Source: an uncultured Bacteroidales bacterium
GTDB lineage: Bacteria; Bacteroidota; Bacteroidia; Bacteroidales; UBA932
Direction: 5' to 3'
Length of the DNA stretch: 64,000 nt
NCBI GenBank assembly: GCA_945939695.1
Contig: CAMEWE010000002.1
Coordinates: 42,880 to 106,879 of the forward strand
The stretch's first letter is position 1; each line of letters opens with the position of its first letter. This document shows, piece after piece, positions 25,632 through 32,819 of this stretch. Both the position numbers and the translations under genes were made by a program. The notes under the pieces are model-generated. The model was not told the DNA's origin and ran no database searches. It saw only the letters and a list, made by a program, of their open reading frames with translations.

Positions 25632-25663
25632 TTTGTGGAAGAGTCAAATAATTGCTATATTTG
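25632..25663 (+). promoter_or_regulatory. Promoter of the kinase/AAA/FHA/PP2C operon: TTTG (-33) and TATATTTG (-7)
   Basis: TTTG at 25632-25635, 20-nt spacer, TATATTTG at 25656-25663, 24 nt before ATG 25688. Confidence 0.7.
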
Positions 25664-26611: not shown

Positions 26612-29482
26612 ATGGCACAGGAGGACAAAATTAAACAGATCCTGGAAGGACTCCACAAAAAGGAGAATGGCACGACAGTCCCTCAGAAGACTGCTGCAAC
26701 CCCTCAAAAGACTGCTGTGGCCCCTCAGAAGACTGCTGTAGCCCCTCAGAAGACCGATGCGGGACCGGGTGCCGTGTCCAAAGGCTCCTCCGATGTGAAA
26801 TGTGCCTATAGCGAAGGCGCCAAAATCAGCGCCGGCAGCAGGGACTGCATCGTGGAGAAAGTCATAGGCAGCGGATCGGAAGGCGAACTCTATGTTGTGT
26901 CGGCTTCAGGCAGGCGCTATGCCCTGAAGCTTTATCGCAAGGGGCATCAGCCGAATTTCAAAGTGCTACCGTTTCTGGATAAGCTTGCCGGGAAAGGTTA
27001 CCTCGTGGATACTGTCGACTACGGCCCCGACTATGAACTTCTGGAATATTTTCCTGAGGGCAATGCCGCAGCTGCCGGATTGAAGGGTAACGCGCAGGCC
27101 ATACTTGCCATCGCTCTCAAGACCGCAATGGCTCTGGACAAGCTGCACAAGGAGGGCATACTGCATAAGGATGTCAAGCCTGCAAATATACTCATAAAAG
27201 ACAGGGACAGTTGGGACACTGTCCTGTGCGACTTCGGAATTGCAGACATTATGGATGCTCAGGGGAAGTGCGCCACAACCCAGGTGCGTACTCCCATATA
27301 TGCCGCTCCGGAAGTGTATTCGGACACTGTGACCATTTCGGGGGTAAGCTATACTGAACTGAGCGCCAAGGCTGACTTCTATTCCCTTGGTATGACCATA
27401 CTCTCGCTATGGGCAGGGGAAAGCGCTTTCCTTGCAAAAGAGCACCAGATGGCTATTGACAAGGTAAAGGGTAGGATTGCCGTGCCTTCCGATATGCCGG
27501 ACCCCCTGGCGAGGATATGCCGCGGACTGCTAATCAGGAACCCGGCCAAACGCTGGGACTGGGAGGAAATCGAGAAGACGGTAAACGGCCGGGATGTGCC
27601 GGTGGAGGAAGATGAACTGCTGGAGGATCTCAATATCACCTTCAGTGCTTCCAAACACCTGTTCGCCAATACCCCTGAGGAACTTGTCGGATGTATGGTT
27701 CAGGAACCTGAACTGGCAAGGAAGTATCTCTACCGCGGCACTGTGGAGAAGTGGTTGAGACCCTATCCTGAACTTGCCCTTGAGATTCAGGACATAGTGG
27801 AGAAACGCTATCCGAAAGACCAGGATACAGGACTTATGGCAGCGATTTACCTGTTGGATCCGACTGTCCCCCTGCGGCTCTCCGGCAGTTTGCGAAAGGA
27901 CGGAAAGGCCGTCTGCCGTGATGCCGTGACCCTGAAGGACGTGGGCAATTTTTTCAACGACAGCTTACCGGATCCGGACACCGTCAATCTTTTGAATTCT
28001 GACACTTTTGTGGAATGGGTCCGTTCCAGAAGTGCGGATGTGGCTGCCAAACTGCCTGCCACAAAAGCCTGCTATCCGACATATATGCTTCGCGTGCAGA
28101 CTGTGGACCCTATGTCGGACATAAATCTCATCAACGACAGCTCGGACCCGCTGTACGCTATGACTCAGCAGGGCATTGGCCTTGTACTCAATGAGATATA
28201 CAATATTTTCTGGGGTAGGTACAGGGGCAATCTGGATACGCTGATCAGCGATTGGCCCAAGAAAGCCAACGCGCCGCTGAACAGGCGCATACCCCTGAGT
28301 ACAATCAGCAATGTGGTGATGGGCCTTTATTATCCTGATGAATTCTGCTACCTTAAGACTTTCTTCAAGCTGAAAGGCGGCCGTTTCACCAAGCAGCTCA
28401 GCTGGTACGAGCACTGCGTGGACTATCACAGCTCCGACAATAAGAAGAAAGCCGGTCCCAAGGATGAGCGCTACCTCGTTCAGTGTGCCTGGATGAGGAT
28501 AGTCAAGGGATTCGGTCGCACTCCGGAATACAACTTCCCGGGGAGTGGAATCAGCATAAGGGACAGGAAGGATCTTGCAGCGATAGGCAAGGATGAGTTG
28601 CAAGGCGAATATGTGAAGGGCGGTCTGGTCGGTTGGCTTGCCGTGCAGTACCACGAGGACCCTTTCGCAGACCTTTCTGCCAAGTATAGCTATGAGCGTC
28701 TTCTAGAGAGCTATCTCGAGGAAATCAGACTGATTGATGCGAAACTTGAACCCGTGAAGCGTTTTGACCTTGCTAAGAAAAAGGCTGCTGCCGCGCTGGC
28801 GGGAGGAAAAGCCAGAATCAATGGCCTGAACATCAGGACAGCCCTGCAATGGCTGTGTCTGTTCGTCCTCGCCATGGTTCCTTGTTTGATTCTGCTCACT
28901 ATGCTGGTATGCTCCATCATCGAGCATCCGACCTTGGATGTGTCCGGTCTGCGCCTTGAATCCTTCTTCTGGCCTGTGGGTCTGGTGGTTTCCGTAATTA
29001 TATTCTTTGCCAGCGATTCGGACGGCTGCCTCATTCCCATCATCGGAGGTGCCGTTTCTGCTGTTGCAGTTTTTTTCCTGATCAGGATTTTGGGTGCATA
29101 TGTACTCTATATCTTTGCCGCAGTCGTGCTTGCTGTGCTCGGAATGCTTGTATTCTATGCTGTCAAATTTCTAAAGAGCGGCAATGCAGCCGTTGCGCGC
29201 AGGTTCTCCAAGCCGGGGTTTGAGGAAAACGTGTTGGAACCACTCTACTTTGCCTTCAGCGATGAGACCGATTTCGATTCCTCACTCAACGGGGCTTTCA
29301 ACGACAGTGAGCTTCTCAGCTGGAAGCTGGAGCTTAAGAGCAGGCGGAAGTTCATAATCTCATTCGTGGTCGTGGTCTGGATCCTGATGGGGCTCAGTAT
29401 GTTGATTCCGGGCAGCAGCCGATTCGACAATATGGCCAGGCCATTGCTGGAAAAAGTAATGCCGGCAGAGAAGCAGGAATAA
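26612..29482 (+). CDS. Hanks-type Ser/Thr protein kinase with C-terminal multi-pass membrane domain
   Basis: GSGSEG, ALK, HKDVKPAN, DFG, YAAPE, ADFYSLG. About five hydrophobic helices near the C-terminus. Confidence 0.92.
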   Translation: MAQEDKIKQILEGLHKKENGTTVPQKTAATPQKTAVAPQKTAVAPQKTDAGPGAVSKGSSDVKCAYSEGAKISAGSRDCIVEKVIGSGSEGELYVVSASGRRYALKLYRKGHQPNFKVLPFLDKLAGKGYLVDTVDYGPDYELLEYFPEGNAAAAGLKGNAQAILAIALKTAMALDKLHKEGILHKDVKPANILIKDRDSWDTVLCDFGIADIMDAQGKCATTQVRTPIYAAPEVYSDTVTISGVSYTELSAKADFYSLGMTILSLWAGESAFLAKEHQMAIDKVKGRIAVPSDMPDPLARICRGLLIRNPAKRWDWEEIEKTVNGRDVPVEEDELLEDLNITFSASKHLFANTPEELVGCMVQEPELARKYLYRGTVEKWLRPYPELALEIQDIVEKRYPKDQDTGLMAAIYLLDPTVPLRLSGSLRKDGKAVCRDAVTLKDVGNFFNDSLPDPDTVNLLNSDTFVEWVRSRSADVAAKLPATKACYPTYMLRVQTVDPMSDINLINDSSDPLYAMTQQGIGLVLNEIYNIFWGRYRGNLDTLISDWPKKANAPLNRRIPLSTISNVVMGLYYPDEFCYLKTFFKLKGGRFTKQLSWYEHCVDYHSSDNKKKAGPKDERYLVQCAWMRIVKGFGRTPEYNFPGSGISIRDRKDLAAIGKDELQGEYVKGGLVGWLAVQYHEDPFADLSAKYSYERLLESYLEEIRLIDAKLEPVKRFDLAKKKAAAALAGGKARINGLNIRTALQWLCLFVLAMVPCLILLTMLVCSIIEHPTLDVSGLRLESFFWPVGLVVSVIIFFASDSDGCLIPIIGGAVSAVAVFFLIRILGAYVLYIFAAVVLAVLGMLVFYAVKFLKSGNAAVARRFSKPGFEENVLEPLYFAFSDETDFDSSLNGAFNDSELLSWKLELKSRRKFIISFVVVVWILMGLSMLIPGSSRFDNMARPLLEKVMPAEKQE
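26681..26764 (+). repeat. Four tandem 21-bp coding repeats (PQKTAAT/PQKTAVA/PQKTAVA/PQKTDAG)
   Basis: Units CCTCA(G/A)AAGAC... start at 26681, 26702, 26723 and 26744. Confidence 0.95.
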
Positions 29483-29528: not shown

Positions 29529-32500
29529 ATGGTTTGCAATAAATGCGGAAAGGATAACAGGAAGGAGGCGAAGTACTGTCGATTCTGCGGAACTGAGTTC
29601 TCCCGGGCTTCTGTCCCTGGAGAGCTTATCTGCAAGGCAGGGATACTCCCTGAGCTGGAAAAGCTGGAAGATAAACTGAAGGTTGCGGGAATAATAGCCG
29701 AAGGAGGAGCCCGAATAGGTATGGACTGCCTGATATTGGGTGATTCCGGCAGCGGCAAGAACTTCATCGCCAATATGATCGCAGACAAAATGCTATCTTC
29801 AGGGGTGGTGAAGAAGAAGCCGATGGCAGTGGATGCCTCGGATTGGGATAAATTCTCTTCTGACTTCGACAAGAACATTTCGTCCATCAAGGACGGGATA
29901 CTGCTCATTACCAATGCCCATAAACTCCTTCCGACGTCCAAAGCCTCCAACGTCAACCAGCTTGACAGGCTCTTCAACAGGATGCGCAGTACCGAAGGTG
30001 CTCCGGTAGTGCTGCTCTGCGGGCTTCTGAACGAGCTTTCCGTGTTCATGGAGTACAACAAGGACGTGCGGCGGCTCTTCGAATTCGAGTTCTCCCTGGA
30101 AGCCTTCGACATAAGCGGTCTGAGCGAACTGGCAATGACAATCTTCAGGGAAAGGTATGGAGCAGGCGTGGCCGAGGGGGTGGAAGAATGTCTGAGAAGC
30201 CATTTTTCATGGTATATGCGCCAGGCCGACCTGGGCTACACCAACGGGCATCTTGCCGAGAAGGTCGCGGAGGACATATATGTGAAGGCGGCTCTGCGCG
30301 GCAGCAGGATCATTGAAACGCAGGACATAGACCCTGACAGGTGCTTTGTACCCAAAAGTGAGGAAGATATTCTTGCCGACCTGGACGGATATGTCGGTCT
30401 TCAAAGTGTCAAGGACGAAATCAGGGCAATCATACGCAATGTCAAGAAACGCAAGGAGAAGGGTGTCAAATCCAAACTGCTTTGCGACCACTATATCTTC
30501 ACCGGCAATCCAGGCACGGGCAAAACCACTTTTGCACGCAAGTTCGGGGAAGTCCTCAATGCCATTGGCGCCCTGCCTACGGGACAGTTCGTGGAGATTT
30601 CAGGCAAAGATTTCATAGGCCGCTTTCAGGGCGATTCCGAAGCCAATGTGAAGAATTACGTTGCCAAGGCAATGGGCGGCGTGCTCTTCATCGACGAGGC
30701 CTACGCTCTTTCGGGCAGCGGGGACGGAAAGGGAGGATACGGAATGGATGCGGTCAATACCCTGCTCAACCTTCTTGAAAACCGCAAGGGGGATTTTGTC
30801 TGCATTATGGCGGGTTACACCAGGGAAATGGGGAATTTCGTCCGCATGAATCCGGGCATCCCTTCCCGTTGCAATGTCACTATAGAATTCCCCGACTACA
30901 ACGCCAGGGAACTGGAGCAGATATTCCGCAGACTGCTCGCAAACAATAATGAGAACACGGTTTTCACCCTTGATGATGAGGCCGGGAAGATGCTTCCGAA
31001 GATATTCGACAGGATGTACCTCAAGCGCGGGGATACTTTCGGCAACGCCCGTGAGGTCAGGAATCTCTTCGATCTGGCTGTGAAGCGCTTGCGTCTGCGA
31101 GAAGCTGCAGATGACACTTTGAGCTACGCGGATCTGGTGGGTGAGGATGCTACGGAGGACATAGCTGTCGAGGCAATAATGAAGGAACTTGACGGATTCG
31201 TAGGAATGCAGGGAGTCAAGAAGGCGGTACGGCTCATAGTGGAGGAGGCTGCGGTGCAGAAGAAACTGGTTGAGCTGGGCGATGCCGAGGAAGGACTGAC
31301 AAGATTCAACATCATCCTGACAGGAAATCCCGGCACGGGAAAGACCAGTGTGGCGCGTACCTTCGGCAGAATATTCAAGGCTCTGGGAGTGACTGCGACA
31401 GACCGGGTGACAGAAAAGGTCCCGGACAATATCATAAGCAAGTACGTGAACGAGTCGGCGCAGAATATGGATGCCGCCGTCAACGAAGCGATGGGAGGCG
31501 TACTCTTCCTGGATGAGGCATATGACCTCAACCCTATGGATCCGGCAGGGCAGAGCAAGAACAAGGAGGGCGAAAATGCTGTGCGGACGCTGATGACGCG
31601 TATGGAGAACGATGCGGGAAAGTTCGTGGCGATACTCGCTGGTTATCCTAAGGAAATGGAAGATTTCCTGAACTCCAACAAGGGCTTGAAGCGGCGTTTC
31701 AGCCATTTCATACATATTGAAGACTATACGGCCGAGGAATTGCTGGAGATATACGAGCGTGCGGCAAAGGCAAAGAAAAACAATTTCACCCTTGCGGACG
31801 AGCAGGTCAGGATGAAGGCACTGAATATGTTCCGCAATATGGTGGCGATGAAGGACGACAAGTTCGGAAACGCCGGCGAAGCCATGAAGATGGTGGCGCA
31901 GACCAAAACCAATATCTACAAAAGGCTGGCTGCCGTTCCGCCAGAGCAATGGACCCCTGAGATGGCGCATACAGCCTATCTGGAGGACATTCCGTACGTG
32001 GAGCCTAAGAAGCTCTCGATAGACGGATGTCTCGCAGAGCTCAATGCGCTTGTAGGTCTTGATGGCGTGAAAAAGTCCCTGACAAAACTGGCGCACACTA
32101 TCAATAACGAAATAGAGAGCGCCAGGCTGGAGCAGCGCCGTCCGGAGATACCTTTAGGACACTACCTCTTCCTTGGAAACCCAGGCACAGGAAAGACTAC
32201 GGTAGCCCGACTTATGGGGAAGATACTGTACTCAATGGGAGCCTTGCCTTCTCCTAAGGTGGTTGAGGTGGGGAAGTCTGACCTTGTGGGGCGATACTTG
32301 GGTGATACAGAAGCAATTACCACCCATGTGATCAACTCCGCGATGGGCGGAATACTCTTCATCGACGAGGCCTACCAGCTCTCTGCGGACCAGTATGGAA
32401 AGACTGTGCTCGAGATTCTTGTGCCGAGGTTGGAGAATGACAGGGGTAAATTCGTGTGCATAGCTGCCGGCTACAGCTACGAAATGCAGGCTTTTCTGCA

Positions 32501-32819
32501 GGCAAACAGCGGATTCGAGTCCCGGTTCCCGGAGCGCAATCGCATTGTGTTTGAGGACTATACGCCCGATGAGCTCTACAGTATCTTCAAAATGCGCGCC
32601 GACAAGGAAGGGTACAAACTCGACCCTATGGCAGAGAATGCGGTCAGAGGCAGGCTTACGATGATGTATAACAAGCGTGGCCGCAGTTTCGGTAACGGAC
32701 GCGACGCACGCAACCTCTTCGACGAGGTGAAGTCCAACCTCGCCGCACGCCTCGCTGAGGAAGTCGGGAGCGTGACCCCGGAACAGCGTAAAACCATAAT
32801 GATGGAGGATGTGCTATGA
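29529..32819 (+). CDS. Tandem four-module AAA+ ATPase of the SpoVK/CbbX/EccA type with N-terminal zinc ribbon
   Basis: CNKC...CRFC at the N-terminus. Walker A at 29739 (GDSGSGKN), 30504, 31323 and 32175 (GNPGTGKT). Three LF(I/L)DEAY Walker B motifs and AGY...SRF/RRF-type signatures. Confidence 0.92.
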   Translation: MVCNKCGKDNRKEAKYCRFCGTEFSRASVPGELICKAGILPELEKLEDKLKVAGIIAEGGARIGMDCLILGDSGSGKNFIANMIADKMLSSGVVKKKPMAVDASDWDKFSSDFDKNISSIKDGILLITNAHKLLPTSKASNVNQLDRLFNRMRSTEGAPVVLLCGLLNELSVFMEYNKDVRRLFEFEFSLEAFDISGLSELAMTIFRERYGAGVAEGVEECLRSHFSWYMRQADLGYTNGHLAEKVAEDIYVKAALRGSRIIETQDIDPDRCFVPKSEEDILADLDGYVGLQSVKDEIRAIIRNVKKRKEKGVKSKLLCDHYIFTGNPGTGKTTFARKFGEVLNAIGALPTGQFVEISGKDFIGRFQGDSEANVKNYVAKAMGGVLFIDEAYALSGSGDGKGGYGMDAVNTLLNLLENRKGDFVCIMAGYTREMGNFVRMNPGIPSRCNVTIEFPDYNARELEQIFRRLLANNNENTVFTLDDEAGKMLPKIFDRMYLKRGDTFGNAREVRNLFDLAVKRLRLREAADDTLSYADLVGEDATEDIAVEAIMKELDGFVGMQGVKKAVRLIVEEAAVQKKLVELGDAEEGLTRFNIILTGNPGTGKTSVARTFGRIFKALGVTATDRVTEKVPDNIISKYVNESAQNMDAAVNEAMGGVLFLDEAYDLNPMDPAGQSKNKEGENAVRTLMTRMENDAGKFVAILAGYPKEMEDFLNSNKGLKRRFSHFIHIEDYTAEELLEIYERAAKAKKNNFTLADEQVRMKALNMFRNMVAMKDDKFGNAGEAMKMVAQTKTNIYKRLAAVPPEQWTPEMAHTAYLEDIPYVEPKKLSIDGCLAELNALVGLDGVKKSLTKLAHTINNEIESARLEQRRPEIPLGHYLFLGNPGTGKTTVARLMGKILYSMGALPSPKVVEVGKSDLVGRYLGDTEAITTHVINSAMGGILFIDEAYQLSADQYGKTVLEILVPRLENDRGKFVCIAAGYSYEMQAFLQANSGFESRFPERNRIVFEDYTPDELYSIFKMRADKEGYKLDPMAENAVRGRLTMMYNKRGRSFGNGRDARNLFDEVKSNLAARLAEEVGSVTPEQRKTIMMEDVL

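Follow-up and report, generated by a model that had tools for sequence, protein, structure and literature searches.

In a 64,000-nucleotide (nt) stretch of DNA from an uncultured Bacteroidales bacterium (GenBank assembly GCA_945939695.1, contig CAMEWE010000002.1, positions 42,880 to 106,879), referred to here as the window, one gene encodes a protein of 1096 residues in which four AAA+ modules are chained one after another behind a zinc ribbon. The question raised by this locus is what such a concatenated ATPase does, and why the first of its modules has departed from the pattern of the other three. Here we report an analysis of the protein, of its relatives and of the tightly packed set of five genes in which the ATPase gene stands third. 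We consider it rather probable that the protein is a concatenated remodeller of the SpoVK/EccA/CbbX clade of AAA+ enzymes, and that a self-contained threonine-phosphorylation switch, encoded by the same five genes, has this protein as its mechanical output.

A previous reading of the window, made from its letters alone and called here the sequence-only reading, had described four SpoVK/CbbX-type modules, the first of them degenerate, preceded by a zinc ribbon. This layout, coordinates included, was borne out by the open reading frame, by motif scanning and by the Pfam and NCBIfam family models (Table 1). The open reading frame is far beyond what chance would produce, and the gene is single-copy in a 2.1-Mb genome that is 95.5% complete and available as a metagenome-assembled draft of 84 contigs. 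At the N-terminus, motif scanning revealed the cysteines of a zinc ribbon (CNKC...CRFC, residues 3-20), and the Pfam model Zn_Ribbon_1 reached 26.1 bits against a cut-off of 25 when the N-terminal 277 residues were scanned alone. The motif G-x4-GK[STN] occurs at residues 71, 326, 599 and 883, in the form GDSGSGKN in module 1 (nt 29739-29762) and GNPGTGKT in modules 2, 3 and 4 (nt 30504, 31323 and 32175). Each of the last three modules also carries a Walker B sequence, namely VLFIDE at residue 385 (nt 30681), VLFLDE at residue 658 (nt 31500) and ILFIDE at residue 942 (nt 32352). Instead of a conventional one- or two-module architecture, the Pfam search of the whole protein returned three AAA domains (E 4.3e-53) and three stretches of AAA_lid_6 (PF17866, E 9.7e-30) in addition to the diverged module 1, and the NCBIfam models TIGR02881 and TIGR03922 gave four matching stretches each. 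Scored module by module, AAA_lid_6 obtained 39.9, 24.0 and 46.7 bits in modules 2, 3 and 4 against a cut-off of 24.3, which leaves module 3 marginal. Modules 2-4 are 33-40% identical to one another, and module 1 is 18-23% identical to the others.

Residue conservation was assessed in an alignment of 38 homologues with identities down to 31%, to which the counts given below refer unless another sample is named. The SpoVK-EccA-CbbX clade, whose members are specialised chaperones with dedicated clients, is defined by a GY sensor-1, an asparagine upstream of the arginine finger and a sensor-2 arginine (PMC11513918). In modules 2, 3 and 4 of the present protein the GY signature (AGY430, AGY706 and AGY982) is invariant or found in 37 of the 38 sequences, the asparagine (N441, N717 and N993) is invariant, and so is the arginine placed six residues after it (R447, R723 and R999). 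The sensor-2 arginine is present in two of the four modules, as R508 in module 2 (34/38) and R1058 in module 4 (36/38); module 1 has H241 at this position and module 3 has G783, a glycine in 28 of the homologues, including the close orthologues, and an arginine in the other 10. The three stretches of AAA_lid_6 add a further feature of the clade. The Asp-Glu pair of Walker B is invariant in modules 2-4, and the pore-loop aromatic residue is conserved in all three (F366, Y639 and Y923). Judged from these columns, modules 2-4 keep all of the predicted catalytic and pore-loop residues, save the sensor-2 arginine of module 3. At the N-terminus, C3, C6, N10, R11, C17, C20 and G21 of the zinc ribbon each reach 90% conservation or more. 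With the whole protein as query, the nearest solved structures in sequence are CbbX (E 2.5e-42) and EccA1 (E 3.6e-38), and residue-by-residue alignment of module 4 with CbbX (3zuh, E 3.6e-43) places the pore-loop tyrosine, the GY, the asparagine and arginine pair and sensor-2 in register.

The Walker B region of module 1 had been described as decayed, on account of the sequence LLITNAH at this position (LLITN at nt 29901-29915). The Walker B pair is indeed missing; simple decay, however, does not account for the alignment. The module is matched both by a hidden Markov model (HMM) built only from modules 2-4 (E 2.8e-7) and by TIGR02881 (E 1.9e-6), and is therefore a real, diverged AAA+ homologue; with the N-terminal 277 residues scanned alone, it obtained 18.1 bits with Pfam AAA, short of the 21.2 bits required. 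G71, G74 and K77 are invariant, the P-loop lysine K77 being found in 38/38 homologues. Position 128, that of the Walker B aspartate, is occupied by threonine in 25 sequences and by aspartate in 12, and position 129 is asparagine in 30/38 and glutamate in one sequence only (P0140), which reads Glu-Glu, so that none of the 38 aligned homologues has the canonical Asp-Glu pair in module 1. Sensor-1 reads CGL in place of AGY, the sensor-2 arginine is replaced by His241, and N177 is kept in 36/38. An invariant P-loop lysine, together with an Asp-Glu pair that is missing from every aligned homologue, argues for a conserved design and not for random decay, in which module 1 probably binds ATP without hydrolysing it. 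Among orthologues module 1 also evolves faster than the rest of the protein (61% identity, versus 74-81% for modules 2-4), which fits a docking or regulatory role.

An exhaustive profile search retrieved 22,427 relatives, and for 9,390 the E value was 1e-30 or lower. Thousands of full-length homologues match the protein in length, and their database names say only 'AAA family ATPase'. When modules were counted with our own HMM in the best 150 cluster representatives of the 22,427 relatives, two modules were found in 2 proteins, three in 72, four in 58, five in 14, six in 3 and eight in 1; 148 of the best 150 relatives thus carry 3-8 modules, and about 40 of them combine a zinc ribbon, a degenerate module 1 and two to seven intact modules. 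The general statement, made in the sequence-only reading, that ring AAA+ enzymes mostly have one or two modules is accurate for the enzymes that have been studied, but not for this clade, in which three to eight are abundant. Internal duplication had also been considered there. When 177 modules from 48 proteins with the zinc-ribbon and degenerate-first layout were placed in a tree, 113 of them had as nearest neighbour the same position in another protein, and each module of the 1096-residue protein had its positional counterparts as nearest neighbours. This clustering by position and not by protein shows that the array is ancient and that its modules are positional orthologues, with middle modules gained or lost during its history; a recent, local internal duplication is ruled out. 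A literature search yielded no account of multi-module SpoVK-like ATPases, no functionally described four-module protein and no account of the five-gene cassette. The ATPase belongs to a widespread, unstudied family of chained AAA+ remodellers.

Other N-terminal layouts occur among the relatives, such as a beta-helix followed by two modules in Streptomyces and Sel1 repeats followed by two modules in Undibacterium. In Ignavibacteriaceae/Melioribacteraceae, a three-module relative of about 1265 residues with TPR is preceded by a DUF6272 protein and a SiaC-family regulatory phosphoprotein (locus L044, 4591-9571, with similar arrangements in L043, L046 and L056), which places a different Ser/Thr-phosphorylation module beside the same kind of ATPase. 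A further three-module relative of 1629 residues (P0153) has an Hsp70-like N-terminus (MILGIDLGTTYS...) and may be an Hsp70 to multi-AAA fusion.

The genes that surround the ATPase gene carry the second part of the argument. Overlaps of 4 nt join the stop of the ATPase gene to the start of the FHA gene, and the stop of the FHA gene to the start of the PP2C gene. In the zinc-ribbon protein encoded by gene 1, an alignment of 26 orthologues with identities down to 28% shows invariant CxxC pairs, a near-invariant motif MLPPAGxTPQEQRNYYTARK at residues 209-228, within which T216 is near-invariant and P217 invariant, and a C-terminal W-x-C...H...C cluster of cysteines and histidine (residues 250-265); Thr216 is a candidate phosphosite. 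The translated kinase contains the HKD, DFG and APE motifs, its middle region matches no assigned domain, and the long hydrophobic stretches of its C-terminal 220 or so residues probably serve as a membrane anchor. Near its N-terminus lies an array of threonine heptads (PQKTAxA, four copies, nt 26681-26764). Comparable heptads (PQKTAVA, PQGTAVA, PEKTAxA, DKTLKPD, EKTxRP) are present in 3-9 copies in all the cassette kinases examined, and their sequence drifts while one threonine is kept per repeat (kinases of L013-L041 and L066-L073), which makes these threonines candidate phosphosites as well. Judged by eye, the number of kinase threonine repeats bears no relation to the number of AAA modules. 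The genome encodes no FHA domain other than that of gene 4, which points to dedicated signalling; the phosphatase matches the Stp1/IreP family model at 1.7e-38, below the cut-off of that model. As the ATPase is the only mechano-enzyme in this conserved kinase/FHA/PP2C cassette, the proposal of the sequence-only reading that it is the effector output of the operon is a reasonable one. Upstream of gene 1 there is a candidate promoter element; TAnnTTTG is the -7 promoter consensus of Bacteroidota.

Table 1. Coordinates of the ATPase, its parts and the other members of the cassette within the 64,000-nt window
Feature	Position (nt)	Strand	Basis
Gene 3: zinc ribbon plus four-module AAA+ ATPase, 1096 residues	29529..32819	+	Open reading frame, family scans
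N-terminal zinc ribbon, residues 1-27 (C3, C6, C17, C20; NR signature)	29529..29609	+	Zn_Ribbon_1, 26.1 bits
Module 1, residues 28-277, degenerate AAA+	29610..30359	+	HMM from modules 2-4, E 2.8e-7
Module 2, residues 278-545, intact AAA+ plus AAA_lid_6	30360..31163	+	Pfam AAA 3.6e-19, lid 4.6e-10
Module 3, residues 546-829, intact Walker A/B	31164..32015	+	Pfam AAA 1.9e-13, lid marginal
Module 4, residues 830-1096, intact	32016..32819	+	Pfam AAA 6.3e-14, lid 3.3e-12
Candidate Bacteroidota -7 promoter element TATATTTG	25656..25663	+	About 25 nt upstream of gene 1 ATG; matches TAnnTTTG
Gene 1: multi-zinc-ribbon protein (DZR), 306 residues	25688..26608	+	Pfam DZR 1.3e-9
Gene 2: Hanks-type Ser/Thr kinase, 956 residues	26612..29482	+	Pfam Pkinase 9e-27
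Gene 4: double-zinc-ribbon plus FHA protein, 147 residues	32816..33259	+	Pfam FHA 2e-14, DZR 2.3e-8
Gene 5: PP2C phosphatase, 246 residues	33256..33996	+	PP2C_2 5.8e-14

About 30 genomes of Bacteroidales from rumen and gut contain orthologues of the ATPase at 66-89% identity, and in about 25 of these species-level genomes, wherever the contig was long enough, the complete set of five is retained with its gene order unchanged. The five genes also occur together in eight loci at 36-44% identity, the ATPases of which have about 810 residues (three modules), about 1115 residues (four modules) or 1386 residues (five modules). The FHA, PP2C and kinase partners were found again on four further metagenome contigs, beside more distant ATPases with 4, 5, 6 and 8 modules. 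The zinc-ribbon protein of gene 1 is encoded on three of these four contigs, the locus on the six-module contig beginning at the kinase, and it is part of every complete cassette. Altogether, the full set of five was recorded at about 37 further loci. On two of the four contigs the gene order differs, and the retention of the partners despite this shuffling is strong evidence for functional coupling. Plasmids and phages yielded one- and two-module relatives only, and no cassette.

Several additional observations were made on these loci and their surroundings. The flanks of the cassette in the window are ordinary genes (GH3, esterase, EamA, M49 peptidase and SerRS), and at other loci DUF1963 and DUF4062 proteins recur beside it. 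A DUF1963 protein of about 205 residues directly follows the PP2C gene in three distant cassettes (L070 11030-11656, L071 11066-11689 and L073 5069-5707), DUF1963 stands close to the cassette at 13 or more loci (including L024, L028-L031, L033, L034, L036 and L038), and the homologue of this protein in the present genome is encoded on another contig (G000:C9; L075 7955-8584). In several genomes the cassette is followed by a protein of about 1027 residues with an N-terminal DUF4062 and then by an unassigned protein of about 612 residues (L029 11592-16494, with equivalent positions in L021, L022, L030-L032 and L036). One five-module cassette contig (L081, 2357-4501 and 12486-16152), the kinase of which carries ankyrin repeats, adjoins a coupling protein of the TraG/TrwB type and may be on a conjugative element. 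In genome G104 (L073 8001-11348 / L002 873-1439), an open reading frame of 188 residues with a partial AAA match separates the gene for the four-module ATPase from that for the FHA protein, and may represent an additional module that has split off or is decaying.

The signalling logic of the cassette has a counterpart. In the H1 type VI secretion system (T6SS) of Pseudomonas, the membrane-bound Hanks kinase PpkA, the PP2C phosphatase PppA and the FHA adaptor Fha1 control a machine that uses the AAA+ protein ClpV1. The same trio of kinase, PP2C and FHA protein is present in the cassette, whereas the ATPase comes from a different clade and has its gene among those of the signalling proteins, and all soluble partners bear zinc ribbons. 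No T6SS sheath gene (VipB/TssC) was found in the genome, which is 95.5% complete. A chain with tandem modules is also a feature of the type II AAA+ unfoldases (p97/Cdc48, NSF, Rix7 and ClpA/B), in which one tier is often ATP-binding and hydrolytically weak and serves assembly, as do NSF-D2 and p97-D1. Type II enzymes, however, have two tiers and belong to other clades, whereas the family described here would have 3-8 tiers of a single clade. Precedent for a bacterial tandem of classical AAA+ modules with an inactive first copy is provided by the PspA-associated two-AAA+ proteins, in which the N-terminal copy is inactive (PMC11237479). These differ from the present ATPase in having two modules and a PspA/Snf7 context, and no PspA gene was recognised among the operon neighbours that were scanned.

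In the mechanism that we propose, the kinase would be activated by a membrane-level signal and would phosphorylate its own threonine array, Thr216 of the zinc-ribbon protein, or both. The phosphothreonine would then be read by the FHA adaptor, which would recruit the ATPase to the complex or license it, and the switch would be reset by the PP2C phosphatase. Module 1, with ATP permanently bound, would serve as a tier for assembly or docking, comparable to NSF-D2 and p97-D1, and modules 2 to n would have a central pore through which a dedicated client is threaded, in the manner of CbbX with the Rubisco tail. Most likely, the chains would assemble side by side with one ring per module position, that is, as stacked tiers.

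Structure models bear on the last of these steps. The full-length AlphaFold model of the monomer, confident within each domain (pLDDT 84.6; predicted template modelling score, pTM, 0.53), consists of four AAA-like units with very short linkers between them, helices ending at about residue 542 and restarting at about residue 547. Its best Foldseek match is CbbX, with a template modelling (TM) score of 0.73-0.75. A two-module model of modules 2 and 3 (pTM 0.66) superposes on the type II chains of Rix7, Cdc48 and NSF with TM scores of 0.52-0.56, versus 0.40 for a match to single-module CbbX, which hints at stacking. Module number provides the stronger evidence: since orthologous cassettes carry ATPases of 3, 4, 5, 6 or 8 modules, a closed in-plane hexamer is disfavoured, and since a stack of rings tolerates any module number, this variation fits stacked tiers. 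Where the sequence-only reading had offered a partly pre-assembled ring or a multi-tier motor, the ring is thus disfavoured and the multi-tier arrangement is compatible with what was found. As a tentative and rather speculative extension, the family may form AAA+ barrels of variable length, in which each of the 3-8 positions would make its own ring. A non-hydrolysing base tier locked in the ATP state would carry as many as seven tiers that translocate, and the kinase, the FHA protein and the phosphatase would gate assembly or activity at the membrane.

Several points weigh against the proposed mechanism. The inter-module geometry of both models is predicted with low confidence (pTM 0.53 and 0.66), and stacking is not demonstrated, because a TM score of about 0.55 is only modestly above the 0.40 obtained with a single module. 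The loss of the sensor-2 arginine from module 3 in the close orthologues means that the three 'intact' modules need not be equally active. An arginine near the finger position of module 1 is kept in most homologues, and is compatible as well with module 1 completing the active site of its neighbour in an in-plane ring. The cassette has a patchy distribution: it was found in 8 of the 151 family genomes and in none of the eight other genomes of the genus, with one other full-length match among 201 genomes of the order and a match in 10 of 401 genomes of the phylum. Finally, the flanks are non-syntenic, the upstream flank being common only to the orthologue at 89% identity, and such a combination of patchy distribution and non-syntenic flanks is also typical of conflict systems, as opposed to housekeeping chaperones.

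These points lead directly to two of the competing explanations. A single ring might be formed by adjacent modules of the same chain, the arrangement seen in dynein and midasin; three active modules from each of two chains would then make up an in-plane pseudo-hexamer, from which module 1 would be left out or in which it would complete a neighbour's site. The arithmetic of three intact modules times two chains, the very short linkers of the full-length model and the arginine near the finger position of module 1 agree with such a ring, but orthologous cassettes are found with 2, 3, 4, 5 and 6-7 intact modules, several of which cannot tile a hexamer, and Foldseek detected no resemblance to dynein-type rings (TMq 0.17), so that we hold this geometry to be quite improbable. 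The cassette might instead be a conflict system, anti-phage or abortive-infection, in which the kinase senses infection and the ATPase, as the effector, unfolds or sequesters host or phage proteins. To the distribution and the absence of synteny beyond the cassette can be added the giant DUF4062 proteins and the DUF1963 proteins that adjoin several loci, the TraG/TrwB coupling protein beside one of them, and a kinase domain similar to those of the defence kinases mad6 and PD-T4-6. However, matches in PADLOC-DB v2 were generic only (IetA and TRIP13 for the AAA modules, mad6 and PD-T4-6 for the kinase domain) and did not extend to the FHA, PP2C or zinc-ribbon proteins, the core cassette has no nuclease, toxin or NADase, its flanks in this window are housekeeping genes, and no copy of its type was seen on plasmids or phages. 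We regard a role in conflict as unlikely, albeit worth bearing in mind.

The remaining explanations, that the protein is an orthologue of one of the named families of its clade or that it is no functional protein at all, have far lower probability. CbbX, the red-type Rubisco activase (PDB 3SYL, 3ZUH), is the closest solved relative, and its pore-loop tyrosine, GY sensor-1, asparagine with arginine finger, sensor-2 arginine and AAA_lid_6 align with those of the present ATPase; CbbX is nevertheless a single-module hexamer that acts on Rubisco, whereas here four modules follow a zinc ribbon, the partners are a kinase, an FHA protein and a PP2C phosphatase, and the CbbX arginine at Asn+4 is replaced by proline, lysine or glutamate, only the arginine at Asn+6 being retained. 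EccA1 (PDB 9LUR), the AAA+ protein of ESX-1 type VII secretion, is of the same clade and serves a membrane machine as its specialised chaperone; in EccA, an N-terminal TPR domain precedes one AAA module, in contrast to the zinc ribbon and degenerate AAA module found here in a protein that lacks TPR. SpoVK, the sporulation chaperone that activates MurG (PMC11513918), gives the best NCBIfam match and has the GY, asparagine and sensor-2 signatures in common with the ATPase, but it is a single-module protein of about 320 residues restricted to sporulating Bacillota. Whole-protein scores do exceed the cut-offs of the three family models (571 versus 423 bits for the SpoVK model TIGR02881, 540 versus 467 for the EccA model TIGR03922 and 460.3 versus 459.25 for the CbbX model TIGR02880); these scores, however, sum over modules. 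Single intact modules attain 127-209 bits, far under cut-offs of 423-467: modules 1-4 scored 27, 209, 158 and 198 bits with TIGR02881 (cut-off 422.95), the modules scored 166-189 bits with TIGR03922 (cut-off 467), and 175, 127 and 170 bits with TIGR02880 (cut-off 459.25). A profile search that was positive in control genomes found no RuBisCO_large in this genome, nor was WXG100 or any other marker of type VII secretion detected in it. To our knowledge, no sporulation has been described in Bacteroidota. With summed scores and absent clients, membership of the SpoVK, CbbX or EccA families is ruled out, and we give it next to no credence. An assembly artefact or a decaying, functionless fusion could be suspected in a draft of 84 metagenomic contigs, and is the least credible explanation of all; thousands of homologues of equal length, an intact open reading frame, catalytic residues invariant in the aligned homologues and a conserved operon rule it out.

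The mechanism of the SpoVK-EccA-CbbX clade is known so far from single-module hexamers with one dedicated client each. In the ATPases described here, the module of that clade is chained three to eight times, its first copy is conserved in what is probably a non-hydrolysing form, and the chain is tied to a putative threonine-phosphorylation switch, in a cassette that many Bacteroidales of gut and rumen share with other bacteria. Stacked tiers would amount to an AAA+ geometry not yet seen; if the rings are instead tiled in-plane, the variable module number would call for a new assembly rule. Barrels of variable length, should they exist, would be new as a quaternary architecture of classical AAA+ enzymes, and would reveal a previously unrecognised, widespread pathway in bacteria from signalling to remodelling. 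In a phylum barely studied for such signalling, the cassette would allow Hanks-kinase signalling to be studied in a compact, genetically tractable setting where its mechanical output is defined.

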